In this document: piece by piece, positions 21,711 to 58,909 of the stretch
How the letters are laid out: every line of letters begins with the position of its first letter
Numbering within the stretch: the stretch's first letter is position 1
Origin: Escherichia phage Ge15
Sequence record: PP359696.1
Length of the DNA: 64,000 nucleotides
Strand: one strand, 5' to 3'
Notes under the pieces: model-generated
Seen by the model: the letters and a program-made list of their open reading frames with translations, nothing else
Told to the model about the DNA's origin: nothing
Databases searched by the model: none
Program-made: the position numbers and the translations under genes

Positions 21711-22256
21711 ATGACGGTAGCGGCGAAACGATTAGTATTAGAAGTTAGTTCACTTTTTGGTGAATTGGCTATAGAAAAAGTAAATAATATGTATCGTTTG
21801 ACACAAGAAGACGATATGCTGTATTTTACGCCTAGTGAAATCATTCATTTAACCAAAATTGAAAATCCTTATACTGATAAAATTGTAAGCATTAATGATG
21901 AGCATAAAATTCATTTTTATTCTTCATGCCCAGGATTTAATATTGAAAGCGAGTCAATATGCTTATCAGTTATCCATTGGGATAGTTTTATAGATAAGAT
22001 TAAATATTTTTATTATTCTAATGAAAGAAAACATAGTTTAAAATGGTTTAAAAATTGCAATGCTATTATTACTAACGCTTGCAATCAGAATGATGAAACT
22101 GTTTTAAACGTATCAAAATGTTATGAAGATGGAGATGTCTTAACTATTCGTCAAATTGATGATTTTCGAGCACATATTGTCACATTTACCAAAGACGAAG
22201 CTATTGCACTAAAGACTTATCTTGATTCTGTCATTCCAACTATGATTTCAAAGTGA
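21711..22256 (+). CDS. hypothetical protein, paralog A
   Basis: 181-aa ORF; shares GFNIE and C-terminal TKDEAIALKTYLDSVIPTM motifs with the next gene. Confidence 0.55.
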   Translation: MTVAAKRLVLEVSSLFGELAIEKVNNMYRLTQEDDMLYFTPSEIIHLTKIENPYTDKIVSINDEHKIHFYSSCPGFNIESESICLSVIHWDSFIDKIKYFYYSNERKHSLKWFKNCNAIITNACNQNDETVLNVSKCYEDGDVLTIRQIDDFRAHIVTFTKDEAIALKTYLDSVIPTMISK

Positions 22257-22262
22257 GGAAAT

Positions 22263-22784
22263 ATGTTTATTTCAAGTGAAAGTGGTTTAATTCGTGTTGA
22301 ATTTAAAAATGACATCTTTCTTATTCAAGGAGATGATATTATTAAAATGAGTTATGACGAAATCAAGAAAATTTGTCATGCTCTTGAAAGTCATGGAAAA
22401 GTGAACGCTGTTATTGATATTGGCGATTTATGGGTGACACTTTATGAAGTATCCGAAGGATTTAACATTGAAGATGAAAATAACATTTTAGCTATTGATA
22501 AAAGAACTGATTTGCTTGATGTGTTAAAAGTTTATGAACAGTCAAACGGTGGAAGAAAAGCTGTATTGATTTATCAAAAACCGCATTCATGTGGAACTGC
22601 TTCAATCATTTCAAATATTGAAGGCGAAGTTGATACTTATATGTGTGTTTTAAAAGCTGGTGGTGACCGTCATCCGGATTTTATTTCTATTCGTCAAAAC
22701 AATGGAGAAATTTCATTATCAAAATCAGAAGCTGAAGCTATGATTAAGTATTTAACAACCGTTACGCCTTCAATGAAAGGATAA
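22263..22784 (+). CDS. hypothetical protein, paralog B
   Basis: 173-aa ORF; C-terminus SKSEAEAMIKYLTTVTPSM parallels paralog A. Confidence 0.55.
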   Translation: MFISSESGLIRVEFKNDIFLIQGDDIIKMSYDEIKKICHALESHGKVNAVIDIGDLWVTLYEVSEGFNIEDENNILAIDKRTDLLDVLKVYEQSNGGRKAVLIYQKPHSCGTASIISNIEGEVDTYMCVLKAGGDRHPDFISIRQNNGEISLSKSEAEAMIKYLTTVTPSMKG

Positions 22785-22786
22785 TT

Positions 22787-23248
22787 ATGATTATTAATGA
22801 AAACTCTTGGCACTATAAATTATTCAAATTGTTTAACGATGAATGGCAACGACCTAAGACATTATGCGCATATTTTTGGTCTATTGCCATTCCTACATTT
22901 TTCGTTTCTATTTTTGGATGTGTTATACTCGTAGGGCTAACAATTATTTGTGCAGAAAGCCTACAACGTTGGCTTATTTTCGGTAGTTTATGGACTCTTC
23001 TTCCATCGGCATTTATACTTGCACTTTTGGTTGTTTTACTTATTATCGGTTCATTTGTTATTCCTGCACATTTGCGTGAAAAATATAAAGATTATAAATG
23101 GAAAAAGGATTATGCTTTACACGTAGAAAATATTGATAGGGCGTATAAAGGTTTACCTCCTATTCAACCCAAGAAATCGGTTATCGTTGAATTTTTAAAA
23201 GCTCGTAAAGCTAAAGTATGTCCTGTTATTGAATATAAGGCTGAATGA
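22787..23248 (+). CDS. membrane protein, unknown function
   Basis: 153-aa ORF with two or three predicted TM helices. Confidence 0.55.
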   Translation: MIINENSWHYKLFKLFNDEWQRPKTLCAYFWSIAIPTFFVSIFGCVILVGLTIICAESLQRWLIFGSLWTLLPSAFILALLVVLLIIGSFVIPAHLREKYKDYKWKKDYALHVENIDRAYKGLPPIQPKKSVIVEFLKARKAKVCPVIEYKAE

Positions 23249-24258
23249 TGAAAACAGTAATGAAAAGCTATTTTGGTAGTCATCTTTATGGAACTTCTAC
23301 CCCAGAATCTGATGTAGATTTTAAAGAAATCTTTGTTCCTCCTGCTCGTGATATTCTTATCGGAAATGTTAAAGAGCATATGAGTAAAAATACCAACAAC
23401 ACATCATCTAAAAACACTAAAGATGATATTGACCACGAATTGTATAGTCTTAAGTATTTCTTTAAATTAGCAGCAGATGGTGAAACTGTAGCATTAGATA
23501 TGCTTCACACTCCACCTGAACTAGTGGTTAAATCTGATTTGCCTGATGTGTGGAAGTTTATTCAAGACAACCGTTCTCGTTTTTATACGACTAACATGAA
23601 ATCCTATTTAGGATATGTCCGCAAGCAAGCTTCTAAATACGGTGTCAAGGGTTCTCGTTTGGCTGCATTACGCGATGTATTGAAAGTAGTTAATCAAATC
23701 CCTGAGCAATGGGTTGATTACCAAGAAGACGGTTCCATTAAGCAGCGTCGTACTAAAGTTGAAGATATTAAGCATCGTCTTCCAGAAAACGAATTCTGTG
23801 AATGGGTGTTCCATAATCATGAGAAAACAGGTCCACAAACGTTCTATACAGTGCTGGGTCGTAAATATCAGACAACGCTTTCTCTTATTGAGCTTAAGCA
23901 GTCACTGAACAAATTAGATGCTGAATATGGTGAACGTGCTCGTAAAGCCGAAGCTAATGAAGGTATTGATTGGAAAGCACTAAGTCATGCTTGTCGTGGT
24001 GGACTTCAACTATTGGAAATTTACAAAACTGGCGACTTGATTTATCCACTCCAAGATGCTCCATTTATTCTCGACGTGAAGTTGGGTAAACATCCATTTA
24101 AAACAGTTCAAGAGTTTTTGGAAGATGTGGTCGATCAAGTAGAAGCAGCATCTACTGAAGCTTCTAAGAACGGTATGCAGCAAAAAGTAGACATGGGTTT
24201 CTGGGATGACTTCCTTGAGAAGGTCTATCTTGAAAACCACCGAAGTTATTATAAATGA
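23245..24258 (+). CDS. Pol-beta-superfamily nucleotidyltransferase-like protein
   Basis: 337-aa ORF with N-terminal motif YFGSHLYGTSTPESDVDF (GS-x9-D-x-D). Confidence 0.6.
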   Translation: MMKTVMKSYFGSHLYGTSTPESDVDFKEIFVPPARDILIGNVKEHMSKNTNNTSSKNTKDDIDHELYSLKYFFKLAADGETVALDMLHTPPELVVKSDLPDVWKFIQDNRSRFYTTNMKSYLGYVRKQASKYGVKGSRLAALRDVLKVVNQIPEQWVDYQEDGSIKQRRTKVEDIKHRLPENEFCEWVFHNHEKTGPQTFYTVLGRKYQTTLSLIELKQSLNKLDAEYGERARKAEANEGIDWKALSHACRGGLQLLEIYKTGDLIYPLQDAPFILDVKLGKHPFKTVQEFLEDVVDQVEAASTEASKNGMQQKVDMGFWDDFLEKVYLENHRSYYK

Positions 24259-24260
24259 TA

Positions 24261-24284
24261 GGGAGCCTTCGGGCTCCCTTTTTT
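24261..24284 (+). terminator. rho-independent terminator
   Basis: GGGAGCCTTCGGGCTCCC hairpin then TTTTTT. Confidence 0.75.
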
Positions 24285-24308
24285 ATTTCAAAAATTTTTC
24301 ACAAAGTT

Positions 24309-24338
24309 GTTTACAAGCATAAAGCTTTATGGTACTAT
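24309..24338 (+). promoter_or_regulatory. early promoter (TTCACAAAGTTGTTTACA ... TGGTACTAT)
   Basis: Same upstream element and -10 core as other early promoters in the window. Confidence 0.55.
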
Positions 24339-24376
24339 ACAACTATCAAAACAAATGAGTAAATTGGAGATACAAA

Positions 24377-24577
24377 ATGACTACTTTGAATAAACGTTTC
24401 GGTAAAGCTAAATCTGGGTGTGCAGCTGAACGTCGTTATGTTTTCGCTCAGTTAGAAGATGTAGAGTATCAGATTAATCAAGTTCACATTACTGGTATCG
24501 AGCCTATGTGTGGCCTTGAAGCTCTTCGTGAAGTTCGTGACGGGTATCGTCGTGACATCGAAGAAATGTCAAAATAA
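24377..24577 (+). CDS. hypothetical protein
   Basis: 66-aa ORF with GGAGA RBS. Confidence 0.5.
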   Translation: MTTLNKRFGKAKSGCAAERRYVFAQLEDVEYQINQVHITGIEPMCGLEALREVRDGYRRDIEEMSK

Positions 24578-24634
24578 GTATACAAACTGATAGGACTATG
24601 TTATAGTAGTCCTATCAAATCAAAGGAGAATAAA

Positions 24635-25603
24635 ATGAAAACTGTAACTATCAATAAGGGTATCTACTTTGGCAAAGAAATCTCTGGAACTTTTGAGCTC
24701 TTAGGCGAATGGTTCCCAGATAATGCTCCGGTAGATGCACAAGGAGATGGTAAAGTTTTTGTTGAAATTGACGGTAAACGTCGCGGTGTTTGGGTTTACA
24801 AATCAGATATTTCATATGATGGTGTAAAAGTTGAAGAAGTTAAAGAATCGTATGAAGATATGAAAACCCGCATTAATAAAAGATTTAATGTTATGGGAAT
24901 GATGACGAATGGTATTATTAATGGAAATATTCGTTCATTAATTATCTCTGGCGCAGCAGGTATTGGTAAAACGTATTCTTTAGATAAAGCTTTAAATAAA
25001 GCAAATGATATTGGATACATTGAATATAAAAGCATTAATGGTAAAATCTCTGGTATCGGTCTTTATGAACAGCTTTGGAATAATCGTGAAGAGAATTCTG
25101 TCCTTTTGATTGATGATGTGGATGTTTTCTCTGATATGGACATTCTTAATCTTCTGAAAGCTGCTCTGGACACCGGAGAGACCCGCAAAGTCTGCTGGAG
25201 CACTGCATCTTCTTACTTAGAAGAAAAAGGCATTGAGCGTGAGTTTGAATTTAAAGGAACGATTGTTTTTATCACAAACGTTGACATTGACCGCGAATTA
25301 GACCGTGGTACTAAACTTGCTCCACATTTACAAGCATTAGTTTCCCGCTCGGTTTATTTAGATTTGGGTGTTCACACTAATGAAGAAATTATGGTCAGGG
25401 TTGAAGATGTTATTCTTTCAACTGACATGATGCAAAAACGCGGTCTTTCTGATGAAGAAACTTATAAAGCATTATCATGGATGAAAGTCAATGTTAATCG
25501 TTTACGCAATGTTTCACTGCGTACTGCACTTTATCTTGCTGACTTTATTATGACCGACAAAAACGGTTGGGAAGAAATCGCTGAGGTTACTCTTCTGAAA
25601 TAA
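24635..25603 (+). CDS. AAA+/P-loop ATPase, unknown function
   Basis: 322-aa ORF with Walker A ISGAAGIGKTY and Walker B VLLIDDVD. Confidence 0.65.
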   Translation: MKTVTINKGIYFGKEISGTFELLGEWFPDNAPVDAQGDGKVFVEIDGKRRGVWVYKSDISYDGVKVEEVKESYEDMKTRINKRFNVMGMMTNGIINGNIRSLIISGAAGIGKTYSLDKALNKANDIGYIEYKSINGKISGIGLYEQLWNNREENSVLLIDDVDVFSDMDILNLLKAALDTGETRKVCWSTASSYLEEKGIEREFEFKGTIVFITNVDIDRELDRGTKLAPHLQALVSRSVYLDLGVHTNEEIMVRVEDVILSTDMMQKRGLSDEETYKALSWMKVNVNRLRNVSLRTALYLADFIMTDKNGWEEIAEVTLLK

Positions 25604-26067: not shown

Positions 26068-26595
26068 ATGAACGCTAAAGATATTTTCAACCTGGTAAAT
26101 TACAACGATGGTAAATTTAAATCAGAAGCACAAAGCAAGTTCTTTAATGACATCTCAATCGGAGGTGAAATCACGGTTGATGGAGGACAAATTTACAAAT
26201 CCCGTTGGAATTGGATCGTTATTATTGATGAGATTGGTATCGTAGAAATTTATAAAAATACGAATAAAAATCGTACATTACACTGGTCTCGTGATACTAA
26301 CGAACAGTACAAAAAGGATAAAGCATCTAAATTATCTCGTGTAACTCAAGAAGATATTGAGTTCATCAAGAAAGATATTTTGATGTATGATAACTTAATT
26401 GCTGAAGAGCAAGCTGTTATTGATAAATTTGACGAGATTAAAGCTTCTCGTGAAATTCCTGATTTTATGAAAGAATCAGTAAATGAACGATACACTCTCA
26501 TTTCAGAGCGTATTGAAACTTACAAAAAGCAAAGAGCTGAACGCCAGAATACTCTTCGGAAGTTTGAAGAACGGTTAAAGACGGTACTCGCATAA
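26068..26595 (+). CDS. hypothetical protein with C-terminal coiled coil
   Basis: 175-aa ORF from ATG 26068; track ORF extension is promoter read-through. Confidence 0.55.
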   Translation: MNAKDIFNLVNYNDGKFKSEAQSKFFNDISIGGEITVDGGQIYKSRWNWIVIIDEIGIVEIYKNTNKNRTLHWSRDTNEQYKKDKASKLSRVTQEDIEFIKKDILMYDNLIAEEQAVIDKFDEIKASREIPDFMKESVNERYTLISERIETYKKQRAERQNTLRKFEERLKTVLA

Positions 26596-26650
26596 CCGCT
26601 TTATACCAAGGATGGTATAATGGTTCTAAGCCCTTTTAATTGAGATTATT

Positions 26651-27059: not shown

Positions 27060-27947
27060 ATGTCAGTAGTAATTAATAATGTCAATGCAGTAATTAAATC
27101 TTTAGTTAATAAAAAATTGAATGAATGGACTGTACTTCGTCGTGGAGAGCCAGATAAATTTTTTCATAGATTTAACCCAACTTTGGATTTGAATGTTATT
27201 GACAGAGATGTTCATGCTGAAATTTTAGATAAATTTAAAGTTGATATTGGGTTTGGATTAGATAAACATTTACAACGAACAAACGGGTCTGGAATGGGTT
27301 TATCTAATCGCATTATGAAAGCCCTTAATAAAATTGGAGCATTGTCTCGTATTAACGCGAGTGAAATCCTTCGTAATTATAATAAAGGATATGACCTTTA
27401 CGGTCGACTAATGCCGAAATTATCATTTGACCAAATGATCGCAGATTTGTGGGAAAATCAACGACGATTATTAGCATTAGGCGCTAGATTAGCTAAAGGT
27501 CTAGATAAACAAATGATTTTTAAGACCAATAATACAGAAGACCTTAAATGCTTTAAATTTAGTATTCGCGGCGATGATTATTACGTCAGAGCTCGCTCTA
27601 CAGATTATGTTAATATGGGGCATCATCTCTGTTTAGCTTTTGAAGTTTTAAAAGAAGCCGGAACATTAGAATATGTGTCTGGTGCTAAATGCCCGATTGG
27701 TTCAAGTTGTATTTTAATTTATCGCCCGGATGAATCCAGTTTAACTAAATTGCCTACAAAACCTGTACCAGTTCGTAGTAATGAAAAATATTCCGAGCAA
27801 ATTGATTATTTTAATAAGCAAATTGAAGAGCTGAATATTTCTATTCAACAGTATGACGATGAAATTTTCAGACTATCTGGATTGAGTAGTAAAGCTAAAT
27901 CTGAGCGTGAAAAATTAATTAAAATTGTTGATTTACTTAAATCTTAA
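27060..27947 (+). CDS. hypothetical protein with C-terminal coiled coil (array member 1)
   Basis: 295-aa ORF from ATG 27060 (RBS GAGGAAAA); last ~50 aa heptad-like. Confidence 0.55.
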   Translation: MSVVINNVNAVIKSLVNKKLNEWTVLRRGEPDKFFHRFNPTLDLNVIDRDVHAEILDKFKVDIGFGLDKHLQRTNGSGMGLSNRIMKALNKIGALSRINASEILRNYNKGYDLYGRLMPKLSFDQMIADLWENQRRLLALGARLAKGLDKQMIFKTNNTEDLKCFKFSIRGDDYYVRARSTDYVNMGHHLCLAFEVLKEAGTLEYVSGAKCPIGSSCILIYRPDESSLTKLPTKPVPVRSNEKYSEQIDYFNKQIEELNISIQQYDDEIFRLSGLSSKAKSEREKLIKIVDLLKS

Positions 27948-27955
27948 GGAACACT

Positions 27956-28981
27956 ATGAAAACTCGTTCTCAAATTGAAGATATGGTTCGTAATGCCAGC
28001 TATACCCGTAATGTTATGACATTTTTGTGCCAAAATAATTTAGACCCTGATAAAGTTAATCGTGATATTCACTTTAAGTATATGAATAGCAGTGAATGGT
28101 TACGTCATTTTAATGAAGCAGGGTATATTACTCAAATGACTGCTCGTGAGCAGCTCACCGATTTCTGTAAAACTATTGATTATAAAAATCCTCTATTTGT
28201 TCAAGGCGTTGGTCAAAGTAAGGTCGATTTATCATCTGGATTTTTCAATCCGAATCATTATCGTATTGAATGGAGATTTATTGCTCTGTTCCGTAGACAA
28301 TTAAAGCAAATTTTGTCTACTGCTAGTCGATTAAAAGGCTCTGATATTAACTTAAAGAACCTGAAATTTGATGGTTATACTCTTCAGATGGAAGTAAGAC
28401 CATTAAAAGAAAATAATAGAACTGCACGAATTAGCTTTAAACCTAATACAAAAAATTCTCTTTCAATTTGTGAATGCCTTAAATCACAGTTGACAGAAGC
28501 ATTTAAGTATATGGATGTTGTTGCTGCTGTTCAATCTAAGATTTTACCTCGTTTTGAACGATTTAAGTTAGATACAACATCATATGAACTTGATATGATC
28601 GTTTCATTTAAATACGATTTTTTGAGAAAGGACGAAGTCCCGCAAGAGAAAAAGCAGGAAGTACAAGATAACTTAAATTTAAATTTATCCAATTACTTAT
28701 CAAACGATCCTAAATTTTGGATGTATAGTTCAGGTAATAAAGATGCATGGAAATTTAATAAAGTGAATTTTCTTCCTATTGAAAATCCGAGTCTTAAACC
28801 TGTTGAAAAATGGCATGCAGATGCAATTGAGAAGTCTATCAAGGCAGTAGATGATGAACTCGTTAAAGCAACTAATGAAGTGCTAGAAGCTGAAAAGATG
28901 TTGGAAAAAGCTCAAGAAAAAGTCAAAAATCTTACGAAGCAACGTTCTAAACTGAACAATGCACTAAATGCACTGAACTAG
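27956..28981 (+). CDS. hypothetical protein with C-terminal coiled coil (array member 2)
   Basis: 341-aa ORF; C-terminus KATNEVLEAEKMLEKAQEKVKNLTKQRSKLNNALNALN. Confidence 0.55.
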   Translation: MKTRSQIEDMVRNASYTRNVMTFLCQNNLDPDKVNRDIHFKYMNSSEWLRHFNEAGYITQMTAREQLTDFCKTIDYKNPLFVQGVGQSKVDLSSGFFNPNHYRIEWRFIALFRRQLKQILSTASRLKGSDINLKNLKFDGYTLQMEVRPLKENNRTARISFKPNTKNSLSICECLKSQLTEAFKYMDVVAAVQSKILPRFERFKLDTTSYELDMIVSFKYDFLRKDEVPQEKKQEVQDNLNLNLSNYLSNDPKFWMYSSGNKDAWKFNKVNFLPIENPSLKPVEKWHADAIEKSIKAVDDELVKATNEVLEAEKMLEKAQEKVKNLTKQRSKLNNALNALN

Positions 28982-29038
28982 TTTACATTGCCACAAGGAT
29001 GTGGTATAATGTTCTTACTTTCTACTGAGGAGATTATT

Positions 29039-30040
29039 ATGACTCGTAACGAATATATCAAATCATTCAATAGCGTTATTGATGATAAAGCTATACCGAT
29101 GTTTGGTCAAAATATCATTCTTTCTATTATCAATCAATGGCTCAATAGTGTTGATGCAAGTATTGTTTCTTCTGCTAAATTTATTCATGAAATTCGTAAA
29201 ATTTCTAGCCGTGTAGATAAAGATGTTATCAAGAAAACTTTTAAAGAGTCTCGTCTTCTTTCATATTTGGTTAATCGGGATATTCTTGGTAATTTTGGGA
29301 AAGAAATTAAACGAACCAAAGATGTAGTAGGATATAATTGGTTCGGTGATGTTAATTCTTATCATCTTAATAATAAAGAAGACCCTGAGAATATTTTTAC
29401 TCGTCGTTGGATTAGTAATTTCAGACTTTTCAAAGGACAAATTCTAAAATCAGCTTCTAAATTATGTTATGGCGATTATCGTCAAATTCATCCTTTGGCT
29501 TCTGATATGATTATCGTAAAAGAATATGAGCTTGATGAAAATAAAGTAGCTATTTTTGTGAATTATGGATTTTTTACACCAAACGCTAACCAAAAGAATA
29601 TTAATAAATTTTTCTCAATTGCTAGCACTATAACTCGTCAGTTAGAGACTGCATTACTTTGTATGGAAACAGTAGAAAATATTCATACATATCCTTTTAA
29701 GAATATATGCGGATGGGAAGGATATAAAATTATAATTAGCCTTCGTGAAGTGAAACGTACGTACTCACCGACTGATAAAGAAATTTACCAACAAAAATGT
29801 GATGAAATTGTGAATACTCCTAAAGAAGAAACTACCCTTGAAGAACTAATGGAATGTCTTGACGATTCGCCTGAACCGATAGAAATTCGTCCAGAAGTTA
29901 TTGCACTAGAAAAAGCTTATAAAGAAGTTCTAGAAATTTCTAATAAAGCGCAGAAAGAATATGAGAAGGCTAAAAGGATTTGGGAAGAATCTGTTAATCG
30001 CCTTGATCGTTTGGAACAAGCTTTACAGTTAATTAAGTAA
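29039..30040 (+). CDS. hypothetical protein with C-terminal coiled coil (array member 3)
   Basis: 333-aa ORF from ATG 29039 (RBS GAGGAG) after a TGGTATAAT promoter. Confidence 0.55.
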   Translation: MTRNEYIKSFNSVIDDKAIPMFGQNIILSIINQWLNSVDASIVSSAKFIHEIRKISSRVDKDVIKKTFKESRLLSYLVNRDILGNFGKEIKRTKDVVGYNWFGDVNSYHLNNKEDPENIFTRRWISNFRLFKGQILKSASKLCYGDYRQIHPLASDMIIVKEYELDENKVAIFVNYGFFTPNANQKNINKFFSIASTITRQLETALLCMETVENIHTYPFKNICGWEGYKIIISLREVKRTYSPTDKEIYQQKCDEIVNTPKEETTLEELMECLDDSPEPIEIRPEVIALEKAYKEVLEISNKAQKEYEKAKRIWEESVNRLDRLEQALQLIK

Positions 30041-30092
30041 TTTAAAGCCAAGGATGGCTCGGAGTATAAATCATTAACCAAGTGAGAAGAAC

Positions 30093-31022
30093 ATGAAAAC
30101 TCGTAAACATTATATTGATTATTTTGACAGTCTTATTATTAAACACCGTAATTATCAGATCGGACACAGAGCAGTAATCAATAATATTCTTCGTGATTTC
30201 CTTCAATATGTTGGCCAGGAAAATCATATCTGTAAAGATACTCAAAACGCTTATTCTCATTCGTTGGGCAATTTGCTTCAATGGTTTAAACGTTCTCGTA
30301 TGTTATCTTCTACTGTAGCTCGCGATAACATTAAAAACTTTATGAAGCCGAGCTTTATTAAATCTGAGACATCTATAACTGATTTGGTTGAATTTACTAT
30401 TGTTAACGATGTTAAAAAGACCCATTTGGCTGATTGGTTATCTACCATTCCTGAAACTAAATTTGCTGATAAATTTGCTTGTCAATTCAATGACCAAGTG
30501 AATATGCTTTTTAAGCATGCTCGCAAACTATTTACCGCGGGCGATGACCGTACAAATACAGTTCATGTTAAGGACTGGGTTATTGCTGATGAAGTAACAC
30601 ACAAGCCAGGTGGTTCATCAGTATTAATTAATATCCAGGTTCCTTATTATTACTCACGTAATCTCGGCACCATGAACTCTAGAGAAATTAATAAGCACAA
30701 CAAAACTATTCGTTCGTTATCTTATAAACTCCGCATGATGTTAAAAATCATGGACGTAGTAGAAATGTATGACGAAACCGAAGATAATGGTTCAATGTTA
30801 TACAGTTCACGCATTTTAATTAAACTGAAGAACCCTAATACATATAAGACAGTTGTAAAAGAGCCTAAAGTAGAAAAGATTGATAACTTGAGCGAAGAAC
30901 GTGAATACCTCAAATCTCGACTAGTTGAAGTTGAAGCTCAGATTGCCGAACACACTAAATTGTTAAAAGCTCTTAATGCAAAAGCAAATGGTTTACGTAA
31001 TGCTATTGAGGTATTGAAATGA
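30093..31022 (+). CDS. hypothetical protein with C-terminal coiled coil (array member 4)
   Basis: 309-aa ORF; C-terminus [44 protein letters not shown]. Confidence 0.55.
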   Translation: MKTRKHYIDYFDSLIIKHRNYQIGHRAVINNILRDFLQYVGQENHICKDTQNAYSHSLGNLLQWFKRSRMLSSTVARDNIKNFMKPSFIKSETSITDLVEFTIVNDVKKTHLADWLSTIPETKFADKFACQFNDQVNMLFKHARKLFTAGDDRTNTVHVKDWVIADEVTHKPGGSSVLINIQVPYYYSRNLGTMNSREINKHNKTIRSLSYKLRMMLKIMDVVEMYDETEDNGSMLYSSRILIKLKNPNTYKTVVKEPKVEKIDNLSEEREYLKSRLVEVEAQIAEHTKLLKALNAKANGLRNAIEVLK

Positions 31023-33283: not shown

Positions 33284-33757
33284 ATGTTATTGACTGGCAA
33301 ATTATACAAAGAAGAAAAACAGAAATTTTATGATGCACAAAACGGTAAATGCTTAATTTGCCAACGAGAACTAAATCCTGATGTTCAAGCTAATCATCTT
33401 GATCATGACCATGAATTAAATGGACCAAAAGCAGGAAAGGTGCGTGGATTGCTTTGTAATCTCTGCAATGCCGCAGAAGGTCAAATGAAACATAAATTTA
33501 ATCGTTCTGGCTTAAAGGGGCAAGGTGTTGATTATCTTGAATGGTTAGAAAATTTACTTACTTATTTAAAATCCGATTACACCCAAAATAATATTCATCC
33601 TAACTTTGTTGGAGATAAATCAAAGGAATTTTCTCGTTTAGGAAAAGAGGAAATGATGGCTGAGATGCTTCAAAGAGGATTTGAATATAATGAATCTGAC
33701 ACTAAAACACAATTAATAGCTTCATTCAAGAAGCAGCTTAGAAAGAGTTTAAAATGA
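33284..33757 (+). CDS. 49: endonuclease VII (Holliday junction resolvase) gp49
   Basis: 157-aa ORF with zinc-binding CLICQ ... CNLCN motifs; T4 endo VII. Confidence 0.9.
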   Translation: MLLTGKLYKEEKQKFYDAQNGKCLICQRELNPDVQANHLDHDHELNGPKAGKVRGLLCNLCNAAEGQMKHKFNRSGLKGQGVDYLEWLENLLTYLKSDYTQNNIHPNFVGDKSKEFSRLGKEEMMAEMLQRGFEYNESDTKTQLIASFKKQLRKSLK

Positions 33758-35571
33758 CAATTGAAAAAGAAATTGAAGGATTGATTCATAAAACTAATAA
33801 AGACCTTTTAAACGAGAATGCTAATAAAGATTCTCGTGTTTTTCCAACTCAACGGGACCTTATGGCTGGTATTGTGTCTAAACACATTGCCAAAAATATG
33901 GTCCCGTCTTTTATTATGAAAGCGCATGAAAGCGGAATTATTCATTTCCATGATATTGATTATTCCCCTGCTCTTCCATTTACTAATTGCTGTTTAGTAG
34001 ATTTAAAAGGAATGCTTGAGAACGGATTTAAGCTTGGTAATGCACAGATTGAAACTCCTAAATCAATTGGCGTTGCTACTGCAATTATGGCACAAATTAC
34101 TGCACAGGTTGCTTCCCATCAATACGGCGGAACGACTTTTGCTAATGTAGATAAAGTACTTTCTCCTTATGTTAAACGCACCTATGCAAAACATATTGAG
34201 GATGCAGAAAAATGGCAAATCGCTGATGCGTTGAATTATGCTCAATCTAAAACAGAAAAAGATGTATACGATGCATTCCAAGCTTATGAATATGAAGTAA
34301 ATACTCTCTTTAGTTCAAACGGACAAACACCTTTTGTAACAATTACATTTGGTACAGGAACTGACTGGACTGAACGAATGATTCAGAAAGCAATTCTGAA
34401 AAATCGTATTAAAGGTCTCGGTCGTGATGGGATAACTCCTATTTTCCCTAAGCTTGTTATGTTCGTTGAAGAAGGTGTTAATCTTTATAAAGACGATCCG
34501 AACTACGATATTAAGCAGCTTGCTCTAGAGTGCGCAAGCAAAAGAATGTATCCTGATATTATTTCAGCTAAGAACAATAAAGCTATCACCGGCTCATCTA
34601 TTCCTGTTTCTCCAATGGGTTGCCGTAGTTTCTTGAGCGTATGGAAAGATTCGACTGGTAATGAAATTCTTGATGGACGTAATAATCTCGGTGTTGTAAC
34701 ACTGAATCTTCCTCGTATCGCATTAGATTCTTATATTGGAACACAGTTCAATGAACAGAAATTTATCGAATTATTTAATGAACGAATGGATTTATGTTTT
34801 GAAGCTTTGATGTGTAGAATTAGTTCCTTAAAAGGAGTTAAAGCTACTGTTGCTCCTATTCTTTACCAAGAAGGTGCATTCGGGGTTCGTCTTAAACCTG
34901 ATGACGACATAATTGAGTTATTTAAAAACGGTAGAAGTTCAGTGTCTTTAGGATACATTGGTATCCACGAATTGAATATTCTTGTCGGACGTGATATTGG
35001 ACAAGAAATTTTAACTAAAATGAATGCTCTTCTTAAACAATGGACTGAAAGAACTGGGTTTGCTTTTAGCTTGTATTCTACACCTGCTGAAAACTTGTGT
35101 TATCGCTTCTGTAAACTCGATACAGAAAAATATGGAAGTGTAAAAGATGTTACAGATAAAGGCTGGTACACTAATAGTTTCCATGTTTCAGTAGAAGAAA
35201 ATATTACTCCGTTTGAAAAGATTTCTCGTGAAGCGCCATATCATTTCATTGCGACAGGTGGTCACATTTCTTATGTTGAACTTCCTGATATGAAAAATAA
35301 CTTAAAGGGTCTTGAGGCCGTATGGGATTATGCTGCACAACATTTAGATTATTTTGGTGTTAATATGCCAGTAGATAAATGTTTTACATGTGGAAGTACT
35401 CATGAAATGACTCCTACTGAAAACGGATTTGTTTGTTCTATTTGTGGAGAAACTGATCCTAAAAAGATGAACACAATAAGAAGAACATGTGGTTATTTGG
35501 GAAATCCGAACGAACGCGGATTTAATCTCGGTAAAAATAAAGAAATCATGCATAGGGTTAAACACCAATGA
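33754..35571 (+). CDS. nrdD: anaerobic ribonucleoside-triphosphate reductase NrdD (uninterrupted)
   Basis: 605-aa continuous ORF with C-terminal glycyl radical motif RRTCGYLG and zinc ribbon CFTCGS...CSICG. Confidence 0.95.
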   Translation: MTIEKEIEGLIHKTNKDLLNENANKDSRVFPTQRDLMAGIVSKHIAKNMVPSFIMKAHESGIIHFHDIDYSPALPFTNCCLVDLKGMLENGFKLGNAQIETPKSIGVATAIMAQITAQVASHQYGGTTFANVDKVLSPYVKRTYAKHIEDAEKWQIADALNYAQSKTEKDVYDAFQAYEYEVNTLFSSNGQTPFVTITFGTGTDWTERMIQKAILKNRIKGLGRDGITPIFPKLVMFVEEGVNLYKDDPNYDIKQLALECASKRMYPDIISAKNNKAITGSSIPVSPMGCRSFLSVWKDSTGNEILDGRNNLGVVTLNLPRIALDSYIGTQFNEQKFIELFNERMDLCFEALMCRISSLKGVKATVAPILYQEGAFGVRLKPDDDIIELFKNGRSSVSLGYIGIHELNILVGRDIGQEILTKMNALLKQWTERTGFAFSLYSTPAENLCYRFCKLDTEKYGSVKDVTDKGWYTNSFHVSVEENITPFEKISREAPYHFIATGGHISYVELPDMKNNLKGLEAVWDYAAQHLDYFGVNMPVDKCFTCGSTHEMTPTENGFVCSICGETDPKKMNTIRRTCGYLGNPNERGFNLGKNKEIMHRVKHQ

Positions 35572-36038
35572 ATTACGATAGATTTTATCCCTGTGATTTT
35601 GTGAATGGCCCTGGATGCAGGGTCGTTCTTTTCGTTACAGGTTGTTTGCATAAATGCGAAGGGTGTTATAATAAATCGACATGGAATGCTAGAAATGGTG
35701 TTCCATTCACTGGTGAAACACTAGAACAATTAATTGAATGTTTGAATAATGATTATATAGAAGGATTGACTATAACCGGAGGTGACCCTCTCTATCCTGA
35801 TAACAGAGACGTGATTCACTCTGTGGTTCAAACTATTAAAAATCTTTATCCCAATAAAAGCATTTGGTTGTGGACAGGATATAAGTTTGAAGATATTAAA
35901 CAACTAGAAATGCTTAAATATGTTGATGTTATTATTGATGGGAAGTATGAGAAAAATCTTCCGACCAAAAAGCTGTGGCGAGGATCAGATAATCAGCGAC
36001 TTTGGTCAAATACCGATGGGGTGTGGACACATGATTAA
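35568..36038 (+). CDS. nrdG: anaerobic RNR activating enzyme NrdG (radical SAM)
   Basis: 156-aa ORF with Cys cluster CLHKCEGC, coupled to nrdD. Confidence 0.9.
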   Translation: MNYDRFYPCDFVNGPGCRVVLFVTGCLHKCEGCYNKSTWNARNGVPFTGETLEQLIECLNNDYIEGLTITGGDPLYPDNRDVIHSVVQTIKNLYPNKSIWLWTGYKFEDIKQLEMLKYVDVIIDGKYEKNLPTKKLWRGSDNQRLWSNTDGVWTHD

Positions 36039-48237: not shown

Positions 48238-48459
48238 ATGACTGCTATAACTCCGCAAGAATACATGGCGTCTCTTAAAGAAAAATATAATCTTTCTGCA
48301 ACAGAAACACTTTTTGATTTACCAGAAAACCTCCAACTAAAATTTCAGGTAGAATTTCAAAAATTAGTTCACCCAGAACAAAAACACTTTACCGCAGTGG
48401 TTAAGTCAATTAATGCAGATGGATTAACAATTTTTCACCGACAACTGGTATTAATTTAA
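48238..48459 (+). CDS. hypothetical protein between regA and gene 43
   Basis: 73-aa ORF from ATG 48238, followed by a terminator hairpin. Confidence 0.45.
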   Translation: MTAITPQEYMASLKEKYNLSATETLFDLPENLQLKFQVEFQKLVHPEQKHFTAVVKSINADGLTIFHRQLVLI

Positions 48460-48461
48460 GC

Positions 48462-48479
48462 AAGGGGCTTCGGCCCCTT
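48462..48479 (+). terminator. GC hairpin with UUCG loop (terminator)
   Basis: AAGGGGCTTCGGCCCCTT. Confidence 0.65.
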
Positions 48480-48499
48480 ATTTGGAGTATAATATATCA

Positions 48500-48537
48500 A
48501 GAGCCTAATAACTCGGGCTATAAACTAAGGAATATCT
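48500..48537 (+). promoter_or_regulatory. gene 43 translational operator (autoregulatory hairpin plus SD)
   Basis: GAGCCTAATAACTCGGGCT hairpin followed by AAGGAA RBS; gp43 is known to repress its own translation at such a site in T4. Confidence 0.5.
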
Positions 48538-51234
48538 ATGAAAGAATTTTATATCTCTATTGAAACAGTCGGAAATAACATTGTTGAACGTTATATTGAT
48601 GAAAACGGAAAGGAACGTACCCGTGAAGTAGAATATCTTCCGACTATGTTTAGGCATTGTAAGGAAGAGTCAAAATACAAAGACATCTATGGTAAAAACT
48701 GCGCTCCTCAAAAATTTCCATCAATGAAAGATGCTCGAGATTGGATGAAGCGAATGGAAGACATCGGTCTCGAAGCTCTCGGTATGAACGATTTTAAACT
48801 CGCTTATATCAGTGATACATACGGTTCAGAAATTGTTTATGACCGAAAATTTGTTCGTGTAGCTAACTGTGACATTGAGGTTACTGGCGATAAATTTCCT
48901 GACCCAATGAAAGCAGAATATGAAATTGATGCTATCACTCATTACGATTCAATTGATGATCGTTTTTATGTTTTCGACCTTTTGAATTCAATGTACGGTT
49001 CAGTATCAAAATGGGATGCAAAGTTAGCTGCTAAGCTTGACTGTGAAGGTGGTGATGAAGTTCCTCAAGAAATTCTTGACCGAGTAATTTATATGCCATT
49101 CGATAATGAGCGTGATATGCTCATGGAATATATCAATCTTTGGGAACAGAAACGACCTGCTATTTTTACCGGTTGGAATATTGAGGGATTTGACGTTCCG
49201 TATATCATGAATCGCGTTAAAATGGTTCTCGGTGAACGTAGTATGAAACGCTTCTCTCCAATCGGTCGAGTAAAATCTAAATTAATTCAAAATATGTACG
49301 GTAGCAAAGAAATTTATTCTATTGATGGCGTATCTATTCTTGATTATTTAGATTTGTACAAGAAATTCGCTTTTACTAATTTGCCGTCATTCTCTTTGGA
49401 ATCAGTTGCTCAACATGAAACCAAAAAAGGTAAATTACCATACGACGGTCCTATTAATAAACTTCGTGAGACTAATCATCAACGATACATTAGTTATAAC
49501 ATCATTGACGTAGAATCAGTTCAAGCAATTGATAAAATTCGCGGGTTTATCGATCTAGTTTTAAGTATGTCTTATTACGCTAAAATGCCTTTTTCCGGTG
49601 TAATGAGTCCTATTAAAACTTGGGATGCTATTATTTTTAACTCATTGAAAGGTGAACATAAGGTTATTCCTCAGCAAGGTTCGCATGTTAAACAGAGTTT
49701 TCCGGGTGCATTTGTGTTTGAACCTAAACCAATTGCTCGTCGATATATTATGAGTTTTGACTTGACGTCTCTGTATCCGAGCATTATTCGTCAGGTTAAC
49801 ATTAGTCCTGAGACTATTCGTGGACAGTTTAAAGTTCATCCAATTCATGAATATATCGCAGGAACAGCTCCTAAACCGAGCGATGAATATTCTTGTTCTC
49901 CGAATGGATGGATGTATGATAAGCATCAAGAAGGTATCATTCCAAAGGAAATCGCTAAAGTATTTTTCCAACGTAAAGATTGGAAAAAGAAAATGTTCGC
50001 TGAAGAAATGAATGCCGAAGCTATTAAAAAGATTATTATGAAAGGCGCAGGGTCTTGTTCAACTAAACCAGAAGTTGAACGATATGTTAAGTTCAATGAT
50101 GATTTCTTAAATGAATTATCGAATTACACTGAATCTGTTCTTAATAGTCTGATCGAAGAATGTGAAAAAGCAGCTACACTTGCTAACACAAATCAGCTAA
50201 ACCGTAAAATTCTTATCAACAGTCTTTATGGTGCTCTTGGTAATATTCATTTCCGTTACTATGATTTGCGAAATGCTACTGCTATCACAATTTTCGGCCA
50301 AGTTGGTATTCAGTGGATTGCTCGTAAAATTAATGAATATCTGAATAAAGTATGCGGAACTAATGGCGAAGATTTCATTGCAGCAGGTGATACTGATTCG
50401 GTATATGTTTGTGTAGATAAAGTTATTGAAAAAGTTGGTCTTGACCGATTCAAAGAGCAGAACGATTTAGTTGAATTCATGAATCAATTCGGTAAGAAAA
50501 AGATGGAACCTATGATTGATGTTGCATATCGTGAGTTATGTGATTATATGAATAACCGCGAGCATCTGATGCATATGGACCGTGAAGCTATTTCTTGCCC
50601 TCCACTTGGTTCAAAGGGCGTTGGCGGATTTTGGAAAGCGAAAAAGCGTTATGCTCTGAACGTATATGATATGGAAGATAAGCGATTTGCTGAACCGCAT
50701 CTAAAAATCATGGGTATGGAAACTCAGCAGAGTTCAACGCCTAAAGCGGTCCAAGAAGCTCTCGAAGAAAGTATTCGTCGTATTCTTCAGGAAGGTGAAG
50801 AGTCTGTCCAAGAATATTACAAGAACTTCGAGAAAGAATATCGTCAACTTGACTATAAAGTTATTGCTGAAGTAAAAACTGCGAACGATATAGCGAAATA
50901 TGATGATAAAGGTTGGCCAGGATTTAAATGTCCGTTCCATATTCGTGGTGTGCTAACTTATCGTCGAGCTGTTAGCGGTTTAGGTGTAGCTCCAATTTTG
51001 GATGGAAATAAAGTAATGGTTCTTCCATTGCGTGAAGGAAATCCATTTGGTGACAAATGCATTGCTTGGCCGTCGGGTACAGAACTTCCAAAAGAAATTC
51101 GTTCTGACGTACTGTCTTGGATTGACTACTCAACTTTGTTCCAAAAATCGTTTGTTAAACCGCTTGCAGGCATGTGTGAATCGGCTGGTATGGACTATGA
51201 AGAAAAAGCTTCGTTAGACTTCCTGTTTGGCTGA
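48538..51234 (+). CDS. 43: DNA polymerase gp43
   Basis: 898-aa family B polymerase with exonuclease and polymerase motifs (DIE, YGDTDS); exact T4 gp43 length. Confidence 0.97.
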   Translation: MKEFYISIETVGNNIVERYIDENGKERTREVEYLPTMFRHCKEESKYKDIYGKNCAPQKFPSMKDARDWMKRMEDIGLEALGMNDFKLAYISDTYGSEIVYDRKFVRVANCDIEVTGDKFPDPMKAEYEIDAITHYDSIDDRFYVFDLLNSMYGSVSKWDAKLAAKLDCEGGDEVPQEILDRVIYMPFDNERDMLMEYINLWEQKRPAIFTGWNIEGFDVPYIMNRVKMVLGERSMKRFSPIGRVKSKLIQNMYGSKEIYSIDGVSILDYLDLYKKFAFTNLPSFSLESVAQHETKKGKLPYDGPINKLRETNHQRYISYNIIDVESVQAIDKIRGFIDLVLSMSYYAKMPFSGVMSPIKTWDAIIFNSLKGEHKVIPQQGSHVKQSFPGAFVFEPKPIARRYIMSFDLTSLYPSIIRQVNISPETIRGQFKVHPIHEYIAGTAPKPSDEYSCSPNGWMYDKHQEGIIPKEIAKVFFQRKDWKKKMFAEEMNAEAIKKIIMKGAGSCSTKPEVERYVKFNDDFLNELSNYTESVLNSLIEECEKAATLANTNQLNRKILINSLYGALGNIHFRYYDLRNATAITIFGQVGIQWIARKINEYLNKVCGTNGEDFIAAGDTDSVYVCVDKVIEKVGLDRFKEQNDLVEFMNQFGKKKMEPMIDVAYRELCDYMNNREHLMHMDREAISCPPLGSKGVGGFWKAKKRYALNVYDMEDKRFAEPHLKIMGMETQQSSTPKAVQEALEESIRRILQEGEESVQEYYKNFEKEYRQLDYKVIAEVKTANDIAKYDDKGWPGFKCPFHIRGVLTYRRAVSGLGVAPILDGNKVMVLPLREGNPFGDKCIAWPSGTELPKEIRSDVLSWIDYSTLFQKSFVKPLAGMCESAGMDYEEKASLDFLFG

Positions 51235-51247
51235 TAGAATAAATCTA

Positions 51248-51268
51248 GGGACCTCCGGGTCCCTTTTT
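51248..51268 (+). terminator. rho-independent terminator
   Basis: GGGACCTCCGGGTCCC hairpin then TTTTT. Confidence 0.75.
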
Positions 51269-51350
51269 CATACAAGTAATATAAATCTATACTTATGAAA
51301 AACAGATGATTCTGGACCTTTAGAATTCCCTAAAAAATTTTCACAAAACT

Positions 51351-51380
51351 GTTTACAAGACTGTTCTTCCATGGTACTAT
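51351..51380 (+). promoter_or_regulatory. early promoter (GTTTAC ... TGGTACTAT)
   Basis: TTTTCACAAAACTGTTTACA upstream element and shared -10 core. Confidence 0.55.
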
Positions 51381-51414
51381 ACAACTATCAACTAATACGG
51401 ATTTGGAGAATAAA

Positions 51415-51651
51415 ATGAAAATTGTTATGGGATGCTTAGCAGTTTGTTTAGTTGCATTAGCAGCAGTTCCATTTGTTAGTGTTGAAAATGATACTCAACC
51501 TGTGATTGAATCTAGCACCGTTATTCACACTAATGGTAAAATATCAGTTAAAATTGATGATAATCTTCATGTGAATACAAATGGATCTTTAGGTGTGCAA
51601 ATGGGTAATACCTGCATAAGCACTACTGGAGTAATTACTACTTGCATTTGA
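51415..51651 (+). CDS. small secreted or membrane-anchored protein
   Basis: 78-aa ORF from ATG 51415 with hydrophobic N-terminus MKIVMGCLAVCLVALAAVPFVS. Confidence 0.5.
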   Translation: MKIVMGCLAVCLVALAAVPFVSVENDTQPVIESSTVIHTNGKISVKIDDNLHVNTNGSLGVQMGNTCISTTGVITTCI

Positions 51652-51661
51652 GGAAATTATT

Positions 51662-52042
51662 ATGAAAATCGCTATTTTGGTTATTGCATTAGGTCTTACT
51701 GGTTGTGTAGCTCAAGGACCGGTAGTAAATCAGTCTGATGTAGGAAAAATTGTAAACTGTTCAAGCAAATTTTATAATCCTAATGTCAAGTGTTATAAAG
51801 AAGCTCCAAAACAGACAGTAGAACAGATGCAGGCGAATTTTGACGAAGCTATTCGCCCAGATGAATCTGCTCAAGCATATCGTAATTCAGATGTAATTAC
51901 ACGCGAAGAAAAAATTGAAAACTACTGCGCTGAGCTTTGGGCCAATTGGGCTAATAATTACCAATGGCGTACAGGTAAAAATGCTCCGATGGAGTATGTA
52001 GTGAATTCTTATAATTCATGTGTAAAAAATTTGACTAAGTGA
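51662..52042 (+). CDS. predicted lipoprotein
   Basis: 126-aa ORF with signal peptide and lipobox MKIAILVIALGLTGC. Confidence 0.6.
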   Translation: MKIAILVIALGLTGCVAQGPVVNQSDVGKIVNCSSKFYNPNVKCYKEAPKQTVEQMQANFDEAIRPDESAQAYRNSDVITREEKIENYCAELWANWANNYQWRTGKNAPMEYVVNSYNSCVKNLTK

Positions 52043-52049
52043 GGAAAAC

Positions 52050-52301
52050 ATGGAAACTTTAGTAGCAGGTTCAATTTTTATGGTTTTAGTTTCAGGCGTG
52101 TTGGCTATTATTATATACATGCTTCCGTGGTTCATCGCCTTGATGCGTGGGTCAAAATCGACAGTAGGAATCTTTTTCACATCTTTACTGTTTAACTGGT
52201 CAATCATTGGTTGGTTTATTACTTTTATTTGGTCAATTGCGGGTGAAACTAAAAAATCTGTACAGCAAAATCAAGTAATTATCATCAGAGAGAAGGAATG
52301 A
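52050..52301 (+). CDS. imm: superinfection immunity protein Imm
   Basis: 83-aa two-TM membrane protein, T4 Imm size and position between 43 and 42. Confidence 0.85.
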   Translation: METLVAGSIFMVLVSGVLAIIIYMLPWFIALMRGSKSTVGIFFTSLLFNWSIIGWFITFIWSIAGETKKSVQQNQVIIIREKE

Positions 52302-52447
52302 AAAGCAAAATTTTAGCAGTATTGCTTTTAATCTTGATGATTATAATAAGTATATACTATAGCGTAACAGTTCCTCTTATGATTCCGCCACTTATTATAG
52401 GTTGGAGTTTATTACTGTTACAAATTAAATATGAATGCATCAATTGA
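52298..52447 (+). CDS. small hydrophobic membrane peptide
   Basis: 49-aa ORF (below track cutoff) overlapping imm stop; almost entirely hydrophobic. Confidence 0.4.
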   Translation: MKSKILAVLLLILMIIISIYYSVTVPLMIPPLIIGWSLLLLQIKYECIN

Positions 52448-52454
52448 GGTTTAA

Positions 52455-53195
52455 ATGATTAACGATTATATGACAGTTGAAGAAATCCGTCTTCATTTGG
52501 GGCTTGCATTAAAGGAAAAAGATTTCGTAGTTGATAAAACTGGCGTTAAAACTATTGAAATTATTGGCGCATCATTTGTAGCAGATGAACCATTTATTTT
52601 TGGCGCTCTTAATGATGAATACATTCAGCGTGAACTTGAATGGTATAAATCTAAAAGTTTGTTTGTTAAAGATATTCCAGGTGAAACACCGAAGATTTGG
52701 CAACAGGTAGCATCTTCTAAAGGCGAAATTAACTCGAATTATGGTTGGGCCATCTGGTCAGAAGATAACTATGCCCAGTATGATATGTGTTTAGCTGAAC
52801 TTGGTCAAAATCCTGATTCTCGACGCGGTATCATGATTTATACTCGTCCATCCATGCAGTTTGACTACAATAAAGATGGTATGTCAGATTTCATGTGTAC
52901 GAATACAGTACAGTACCTGATTCGTGATAAGAAAGTCAATGCAGTAGTGAGCATGCGTTCAAATGACGTTGTCTTCGGATTCCGTAATGATTATGCATGG
53001 CAAAAATACGTACTAGATAAATTAGTATCTGATTTGAATGCAGGTGATTCAACTCGTCAGTATAAAGCAGGTTCTATTATATGGAATGTTGGAAGTCTTC
53101 ATGTATATTCTCGTCATTTTTACTTGGTTGATCATTGGTGGAATACTGGCGAAACTCATATTGTGAAAAAAGATTATAATGGTGAGTGGAAATGA
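52455..53195 (+). CDS. 42: dCMP hydroxymethylase gp42
   Basis: 246-aa thymidylate-synthase-like ORF, T4 gp42 size and position. Confidence 0.92.
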   Translation: MINDYMTVEEIRLHLGLALKEKDFVVDKTGVKTIEIIGASFVADEPFIFGALNDEYIQRELEWYKSKSLFVKDIPGETPKIWQQVASSKGEINSNYGWAIWSEDNYAQYDMCLAELGQNPDSRRGIMIYTRPSMQFDYNKDGMSDFMCTNTVQYLIRDKKVNAVVSMRSNDVVFGFRNDYAWQKYVLDKLVSDLNAGDSTRQYKAGSIIWNVGSLHVYSRHFYLVDHWWNTGETHIVKKDYNGEWK

Positions 53196-54034: not shown

Positions 54035-54111
54035 TGCCTAAATTTATTGTGTTATAATTACTCTATCTTTAACCAGTGAGGAAAATATAATGATGCCTAT
54101 GGAAAAAATGA

Positions 54112-55293: not shown

Positions 55294-55630
55294 AGATGAT
55301 TTGGATTTAGATCTAGAAATTATCGACGAATCCCCCTCTTCGGAGGGGGAAGAAGAAAGAAAAGAACGTCTTTTTAATGAATCTCTTAAGATAATTAAAT
55401 CTGCCATGGAAAATGTTATCCAGGAGATTGTCATTAAACTAGAAGACGGTTCTACACACATTGTGTATGTGACAAAATTAGATTGGGTTGATGGAAAAGT
55501 CGTAATGGACTTTGCTGTTCTTGACCAAGAAAGAAAAGCTGAGTTAGCTCCTCATGTAGAAAAATGTATTACAATGCAACTACAAGATGCATTTAATAAA
55601 AGGTCAAAGAAAAAATTTAAATTCTTTTAA
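55286..55630 (+). CDS. 40: head vertex assembly chaperone gp40
   Basis: 114-aa ORF between uvsX and 41. Confidence 0.7.
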   Translation: MNKDDLDLDLEIIDESPSSEGEEERKERLFNESLKIIKSAMENVIQEIVIKLEDGSTHIVYVTKLDWVDGKVVMDFAVLDQERKAELAPHVEKCITMQLQDAFNKRSKKKFKFF

Positions 55631-55639
55631 GGAGTAAGT

Positions 55640-57067: not shown

Positions 57068-57096
57068 TTTACAAGCCGACAAGACTATGGTATAGT
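57067..57096 (+). promoter_or_regulatory. early promoter with stem-loop (GTTTAC ... TGGTATAGT)
   Basis: Inverted repeat ACAAGACTA/TAGTCTTGT brackets the -10. Confidence 0.55.
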
Positions 57097-57125
57097 AGTC
57101 TTGTTGGTTAAATGAGGAGATTGTT

Positions 57126-57308: not shown

Positions 57309-57309
57309 T

Positions 57310-57567: not shown

Positions 57568-57627
57568 CTGTTTACTTTTGTTGGAAATTGAGATACTATA
57601 TAAACATAAACTACTGAGGAGATTATC

Positions 57628-58905: not shown

Positions 58906-58909
58906 TATG
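58861..58909 (+). repeat. 49-bp direct repeat copy 2
   Basis: Second copy of the junction repeat, 358 bp downstream of the first. Confidence 0.85.

Follow-up and report, generated by a model that had tools for sequence, protein, structure and literature searches.

Escherichia phage Ge15 (PP359696.1) was analysed over a stretch of 64,000 nucleotides (nt), hereafter the window, in which four open reading frames (ORFs A to D) run consecutively on the + strand. Megablast places the window in Tequatrovirus, among the T4-like phages, a 3978-bp segment matching many genomes of this genus at 97–98% identity (97.9% being the figure obtained). By mapping T4 proteins onto the window with tblastn, together with the T4 annotation (NC_000866), the four ORFs were identified as orthologues of T4 genes:

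27060–27947, + strand: ORF A, orthologue of T4 nrdC.6; 295 amino acids (aa); 95.8% identity to T4 over 259 aa; phrog_2257, expectation value (E) 7.5e-152
27956–28981, + strand: ORF B, orthologue of T4 nrdC.5, the published anti-Dsr1 gene; 341 aa; 93.7% identity to T4
29039–30040, + strand: ORF C, orthologue of T4 nrdC.4; 333 aa; 95.2% identity to T4; phrog_1435
30093–31022, + strand: ORF D, orthologue of T4 nrdC.3, a divergent allele; 309 aa; 59.7% identity to T4; phrog_1435

The genes are flanked by nrdC.7 and nrdC.2, in the gene order and position found in T4, which itself has the full nrdC.6–nrdC.3 array. Gaps of 8, 57 and 52 nt separate them and ORF D overlaps the next gene by 4 nt, in agreement with an earlier note on this DNA that had described four consecutive, tightly packed ORFs of similar length. 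The same note had taken the nrdC–tk interval to be longer than in T4, with 7–8 kb given for T4, which was wrong: it spans ~11.4 kb in T4 (48391 to 59763) and ~11.9 kb in the window (tk end 19752, nrdC start 31654). Since T4 carries the same four genes within that interval, the array is not extra DNA relative to T4.

Because profile–profile and fold comparisons tie all four proteins together, they are read here as diverged tandem paralogues of one phage-specific family, with nrdC.6 the least securely placed, and the diversified family of related architecture that had been proposed is supported. In an all-against-all BLASTP comparison only nrdC.4 and nrdC.3 were significantly similar (28% over 160 aa, E 2e-7), and profile comparison was therefore needed. 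Family alignments combining database homologues with orthologues from other genera connected all four in hhalign. The nrdC.4 and nrdC.3 profiles matched at 98% (98.3% for the heads only, i.e. the regions preceding the C-terminal tails). The nrdC.5 profile matched the combined nrdC.4 and nrdC.3 profile at 90.6% (P 1.3e-6), colinear over three motifs, and matched nrdC.3 with P 4.9e-4 when only the heads were compared, and nrdC.6 matched the merged profile of the other three at 83.8% (P 7.9e-6), with two shared motifs. When all window ORFs were searched, the ORF B profile and the C+D profile were mutual best non-self matches. This search offered nothing in favour of counting nrdC.8, another protein that ends in a helix, as a fifth paralogue.

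The profile matches fall in the heads (motifs at aa 50–220), not in the tails, so that homology was found between the heads with the coiled coils excluded, the weakest link being ORF A, the most divergent member. The matched motifs are F[KN]..r.L[ST]....[RS][DE].L..[FY] and a helix ending A[SR][RK]L..G.D; ORFs B, C and D have in addition a matched helix L..AL..MdvVE and a common N-terminus M(K)TR..YI..F. At the level of fold, the AlphaFold2 (AF2) model of nrdC.4, obtained from a merged 41-sequence alignment, was good, with a predicted local distance difference test score (pLDDT) of 83.2 and a predicted template modelling score (pTM) of 0.67. Searched against BFVD with Foldseek, it gave full-length matches with probability 1.00 to an nrdC.3-type protein (E 1.8e-8) and to JS10 nrdC.6 (E 6.3e-5). 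It also matched uncharacterised proteins of 300–370 aa from T4-like phages of Enterobacter, Pectobacterium, Acinetobacter, Erwinia, Yersinia, Serratia and Klebsiella. A Foldseek comparison of the nrdC.4 fold with the PDB returned no significant match to solved structures, and a PDB sequence search with the A, B and C+D profiles gave nothing meaningful.

Existing family definitions divide the array. ORF B belongs to Pfam DUF7235 (PF23882) over its full length (405 bits, E 3e-121; gathering threshold 30 bits) and is its only member here, as ORFs A, C and D had no DUF7235 match in Pfam up to E = 1. ORFs C and D match phrog_1435 over their full length (E 1.4e-166 and 2.6e-115), and all homologues of C and D carry PF26897 in precomputed annotation. 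PF26897/phrog_1435 is the family of nrdC.3 and nrdC.4; as defined, it does not include nrdC.5 and nrdC.6, which are tied to it here by profile–profile and fold comparison only. Scans against Pfam and NCBIfam found no enzymatic domain in A–D, which bears out the earlier statement that no catalytic motifs are recognisable.

The proteins have a three-module build, consisting of an N-terminal helical bundle of ~85 aa, an alpha/beta sandwich of ~150 aa and, after a flexible linker, a C-terminal amphipathic helix of 48–59 aa. In the nrdC.4 model these are a helical bundle at 3–84, an alpha/beta domain at 88–235 (in order: three strands, long helix, hairpin, long helix, hairpin), a low-confidence acidic linker and a helix at 285–332. 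The tails are as follows:

27792–27944, + strand: C-terminal heptad tail of nrdC.6, aa 245–295, interrupted by Gly; register a: NIIIISRV, d: YFLYLALL
28802–28978, + strand: predicted C-terminal coiled-coil tail of nrdC.5, aa 283–341; heptad score 0.9; AF2 single helix at 282–340, pLDDT 70–84
29891–30037, + strand: C-terminal helix of nrdC.4, aa 285–333; AF2 helix at 285–332, pLDDT ~79–86
30867–31019, + strand: predicted C-terminal coiled-coil tail of nrdC.3, aa 259–309; continuous heptads, a: IRLILAI, d: KLLVHLLL

Coiled coils were judged by a crude home-made heptad score, with 200 shuffles for each protein. The score was strong for ORF B (283–341, reached by 0/200 shuffles) and ORF D (259–309, 2/200), both with continuous a/d registers, and weaker for ORF C (287–317, 8/200) and ORF A (245–273, 13/200), in which a Gly breaks the helix. 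Where a ~50-aa C-terminal coiled coil had been claimed for all four, each has a heptad-patterned helix of about that length, with a strong signal in B and D only. Structure prediction, which the earlier note had proposed, gave models of nrdC.4 and nrdC.5 that each end in one uninterrupted long helix. Counted from the C-terminus, the heptad register is the same in all four tails, and each closes with L..[AIV][LIVM].[LAVI][LIM][KN], an ending found in no other of the 159 window ORFs of at least 60 aa; having been defined after the four proteins were seen, this motif is descriptive only. Because tail-only profiles of different paralogues were not significantly similar (hhalign, P 0.009–0.15), homology of the tails between paralogues is not claimed beyond register and end motif.

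Within each lineage, the tails were more conserved than the heads, as the earlier description of shared tails and divergent heads had suggested. In divergent orthologue pairs, tail versus head identities were 0.59/0.33 for A, 0.40/0.27 for B, 0.66/0.44 for C and 0.72/0.57 for D, and the nrdC.4 tail KKLWEESTNRLDRLEQALELLK was nearly invariant among orthologues with only 40–50% head identity. The tail alone is retained of nrdC.6 in phage Pinarejo and of nrdC.4 in phage Manna.

By sequence, the families are confined to E. coli-type T-evens, with 553–741 phage records each. The C+D profile, searched against 1.84 billion proteins, recovered only 10 cluster representatives, none of them from the A or B families. 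Classification with hidden Markov models assigned A, B, C and D to T4 and the window, A, B and C to the Dhakaviruses JS98 and Bp7, A, B and D to JK45, and A and D to the Mosigvirus ESCO47. Mapped across T4-like genomes in this way, copy number ranges from two to four and differs between related genera. Linked folds and a variable copy number are the opposite of four unrelated folds that are each conserved in all T4-like phages. In distant Straboviridae, one to three remote members occupy the same locus upstream of nrdC and have a C-terminal helix ending L..[AS]L..L; they include Acj61 p120 (78.7%), Klebsiella 311F_38 (95.7%) and Yersinia fHe-Yen9-01 gp94 (92.8%), from T4-like phages of Acinetobacter, Klebsiella and Yersinia.

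Record counts and substitution rates indicate that the array evolves faster than its surroundings within Tequatrovirus: 482 records match nrdC.10 at 99% identity or more, compared with zero records at that level for nrdC.5 and nrdC.4. Between the window and T4, the ratio of nonsynonymous to synonymous substitution rates (dN/dS) was 0.15–0.26 for the array and 0–0.13 for most flanking genes, with 0.31 for nrdC.7; the array values point to relaxed or diversifying constraint. The low identity of nrdC.3 to T4 was accompanied by a synonymous rate (dS) of 1.2, while adjacent genes were 95–100% identical, and this dS indicates allelic replacement by recombination. Phage records of nrdC.3 fall into discrete identity bands (~95%, ~76% and ~60%), a pattern that marks the locus as a recombinational mosaic with alternative alleles. 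Natural deletion chimeras of nrdC.5 and nrdC.3, from which nrdC.4 has been removed, occur in P0111 (167058 bp) and ACG-C40 (NC_019399.1, 47512–47923). The P0111 junction, ...KFNKVN|MLFKHARKLF, is not at homologous positions, and ACG-C40 retains only aa 1–68 of nrdC.5 and aa 238–309 of nrdC.3.

Two promoter features were assigned in and upstream of the array:

26595–26621, + strand: promoter-like element 5' of nrdC.7; promoter annotated at the equivalent site in phage Lutter (97.8% identical); sequence ...ctttataccaaggatggTATAATgg
28982–29010, + strand: early promoter of sigma-70 type, serving nrdC.4 and the genes behind it; TTTACA-17-TATAAT with extended TG, 11/12 matches

The element at 28982–29010 had the best score in an 8-kb consensus scan, and a promoter is annotated there in Lutter as well, so that the promoter previously noted for one of the four genes is a strong, early-type one before nrdC.4. 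The element at 26595–26621 probably drives nrdC.7, nrdC.6 and nrdC.5, an assignment kept tentative because the consensus scan gave no score for it. The intergenic regions before nrdC.7 (26595–26621), nrdC.4 (28982–29010) and nrdC.3 (30045–30075) have variants of one element in common, which reads CCA(C)AAGGATG(T)GG and then TATAA(T/A). The copy before nrdC.3 (30045–30075) reads TATAAAT, like the T4 late-promoter core TATAAATA, and has a poor −35.

Functional data in the searchable literature on nrdC.3 to nrdC.7 or DUF7235 were limited to a single study, on nrdC.5. There, an evolved T4 clone with deletions lost plating on ECOR17, and deletion of the host dsr1 restored it; plasmid-borne dsr1 protected MG1655, and inducible T4 nrdC.5 brought infection back (Srikant et al., 2022; PMC9391042). 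Without nrdC.5, T4 was stopped by ECOR17 Dsr1, and supplying the gene from a plasmid rescued the phage (PMC9391042). Of the sensors, inhibitors or adaptors suggested earlier, the inhibitor idea is supported, for nrdC.5 only, as the T4 gene overcomes Dsr1; there was no evidence for a sensor or an adaptor. As paralogues of nrdC.5, the genes nrdC.3, nrdC.4 and nrdC.6 are nominated as counter-defence candidates. On the whole, the array most likely comprises phage-specific tandem paralogues that are expressed early, act in counter-defence and oligomerise through their tails, a reading to which we assign a probability of roughly 55%. Within it, an anti-defence role of nrdC.3, nrdC.4 and nrdC.6 is presumed, NrdC.5 may bind Dsr1 directly, and the heptads together with the lone long helix of the models suggest oligomerisation through the tail.

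In the mechanism proposed, the array would be transcribed early, from the promoter-like element ahead of nrdC.7 and the strong early promoter ahead of nrdC.4. The variable head would bind and block a host immune sensor, and the conserved tail would form a dimer or higher oligomer, providing avidity against oligomeric sensors, with each paralogue in its own assembly. The target of nrdC.5 would be the sirtuin NADase Dsr1. According to a 2026 preprint, Dsr1 shares its tetratricopeptide repeat (TPR) sensor domain with Avs7, and the major capsid protein of the phage triggers this domain (PMC12803255). Because of this reported trigger, early NrdC.5 would pre-empt activation, occupying or locking Dsr1 ahead of the capsid protein, which is made late. 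Other sensors would be the targets to which the remaining three paralogues are tuned. A wider reading, doubtful though worth stating, would see the array and its remote relatives upstream of nrdC across Straboviridae as a fast-evolving early 'anti-receptor' superfamily. Each head would block a different TPR-type sensor (Dsr1, Avs7-like proteins and relatives detecting conserved virion proteins) and the coiled-coil tail would be an oligomeric scaffold, and copy gain, loss and allelic swapping would be a main determinant of T-even host range.

Several observations weigh against the counter-defence reading. The published nrdC.5 rescue could be indirect rather than brought about by contact of NrdC.5 with Dsr1; for nrdC.3, nrdC.4 and nrdC.6 the role is extended from nrdC.5 only. 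The nrdC.6 link consists of a grey-zone profile match and one Foldseek match with a low template modelling (TM) score of 0.37–0.43. The AF2 model of nrdC.5, from its own shallow alignment, was poor in the middle (pLDDT 49.6) and was for this reason kept out of the fold searches. The above dN/dS values, which are well below 1, show no positive selection at the level of whole genes. Finally, most heads have a basic pI (9–10 in A, C and D; 9.6–10.1 for their N-terminal domains), which would fit nucleic-acid binding too.

This last property also speaks for a reading in which the four are early proteins of host takeover or nucleic-acid binding (e.g. dimers that bind DNA or RNA) and nrdC.5 acts on Dsr1 only indirectly. 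The N-terminal domain of nrdC.3 (aa 30–86; 30180–30350) is, moreover, weakly like the SAM-like DNA-binding domain of XerD and phage integrases (tyrosine recombinases), with matches to NCBIfam PRK00283 (E 0.0013) and XerD (E 0.014) and to Pfam Phage_int_SAM_1 (E 0.079). However, these matches lie far under the curated cut-offs and occur in only 4 of the 41 family members; at best 13.7 bits against a cut-off of 22.3 for Phage_int_SAM_1, and 18 bits against 279 in NCBIfam, an integrase SAM-like domain was not accepted. nrdC.5 lacks a basic N-terminal domain (pI 6.7), and variable copy number and allelic replacement are more in keeping with accessory genes of an arms race than with core functions of host takeover, so that we consider this explanation unlikely. 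It is likewise improbable that A–D form a single early hetero-oligomer, held together by their similar C-terminal helices, and work as one machine rather than as four independent inhibitors. The common heptad register and terminal motif L..A[LI]..LK, co-transcription in two adjacent units and the strong tail conservation per lineage, as expected of a specific helix–helix interface, are in its favour. Yet related phages thrive with two or three of the genes (A, B, C; A, B, D; A, D), plasmid nrdC.5 by itself rescued the T4 clone carrying deletions (PMC9391042), and the tails of different paralogues were not significantly similar as profiles.

A further possibility, to which we attach little weight, is that the central alpha/beta domain imitates a conserved virion protein (a tail-terminator fold, like that of lambda gpU), the proteins being early decoys that saturate host sensors of structural-protein folds. 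Such a resemblance would be no more than a lead to where the central domain came from, or to a decoy role. Least probable, and already disfavoured, is that the four are unrelated orphans that each end in an amphipathic helix, the family being an artefact of coiled-coil composition. BLASTP gave no significant match of A or B to any other of the four, and coiled coils often yield spurious profile matches; but it is in the heads that the profiles match significantly (C–D 98.3%, B–D P 4.9e-4; merged profiles aa 50–220) and the Foldseek structure matches span the full length.

The four genes are long-known T4 ORFs and the counter-defence activity of nrdC.5 is published; what appears to be new within the searchable literature is that they are paralogues of a three-module build, belonging to a fold-level superfamily at this locus across T4-like phages. 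ORF B, at the same position as T4 NrdC.5 (DUF7235), is the orthologue of a gene that Srikant et al. (2022) treat as a lone uncharacterised early gene and that here becomes one of four paralogues. No discussion of its kinship with the three neighbours, or of its domain layout, was found in the searchable texts. A functional likeness is proposed to DSAD1 of an SPbeta phage, which is reported to bind the SIR2-family protein DSR2 and to stop its activation by the virion-protein trigger (tail tube). This is a functional analogy only: the target of DSAD1 is DSR2, whereas NrdC.5 is likened to it by function and would bind Dsr1 directly only by extension.

The T-even ip locus (IPI, IPII and IPIII) is a hyperplastic cassette of diversified accessory proteins, in which a short conserved capsid-targeting module is combined with variable bodies; at least IPI is an anti-defence protein, against GmrSD. 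IPIII was added as anti-defence by Srikant et al. (2022; PMC9391042). The ip proteins are packaged into the head and have a targeting peptide at the N-terminus as their common module, whereas in the nrdC.6–nrdC.3 array this module is the predicted C-terminal coiled coil, the genes are early and the proteins presumably cytoplasmic. The array is not a new kind of system; the hypothesis it provides is useful and can be tested directly in a model phage. Although T4 serves as the reference lytic phage, annotations of the four genes (~4 kb) still read hypothetical or, wrongly, 'thioredoxin'. Three of them are now concrete candidate counter-defence genes, testable by simple deletion and plating, and the domain map of head and tail can be used for dissecting how NrdC.5 stops Dsr1. 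As a marker family at a conserved locus, the array may also serve to follow accessory-arsenal turnover in T4-like phages.

Many GenBank genomes of T4-like phages name every gene from nrdC.11 to nrdC.1 'thioredoxin', and one T6 record calls nrdC.5 a 'tail sheath stabilizer'; these labels are annotation-propagation errors that stem from the gene names. In the T4 reference (NC_000866, 52066–52893), nrdC.6 is annotated with 275 aa owing to a single-base deletion relative to the window (GAGCTG-ATATT; equivalent of 27830–27947). The next frame still encodes the whole heptad tail ISIQQYDDEIFRLSGLSSKAKSEREKLIKIVDLLKS, with amino acids identical to those of the window, and the frameshift is either a sequencing error or a recent event in a laboratory strain. 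Another T4 record, MZ375356.1, matches nrdC.6 through the tail in one piece.

Among the neighbouring genes, nrdC.11 (upstream, in 23248–25603) encodes an RlaP-type nucleotidyltransferase (PF10127, E 2.5e-11) and is followed on its 3' side by a clean intrinsic terminator hairpin at 24260–24279. In the same interval, nrdC.10 encodes a P-loop/STAND-like ATPase with 1311 phage records, including jumbo phages, a far wider distribution than that of the array. Comparison with T4 indicates that the phage is without the mobile elements that surround the array in T4 (window 22256–23245 and 33754–36038). The window contains no match to the T4 homing endonuclease mobD, nrdD is one continuous ORF of 605 aa (33754–36038 region) with no intron and no I-TevII, and the nrdD–nrdG gap is too small for mobC. 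Unusual divergence from T4 was also seen in tk.4 (58%) and nrdG (79%). In the Klebsiella and Yersinia phages with remote members, the slot beside the array member is occupied by proteins of ~262 aa, 311F_37 (L008, 11257–12045) and fHe-Yen9-01 gp100 (L009, 11630–12421). These have motifs matching at both ends, e.g. VVLENG.TVYGSLPKS, and appear to be a different conserved family.

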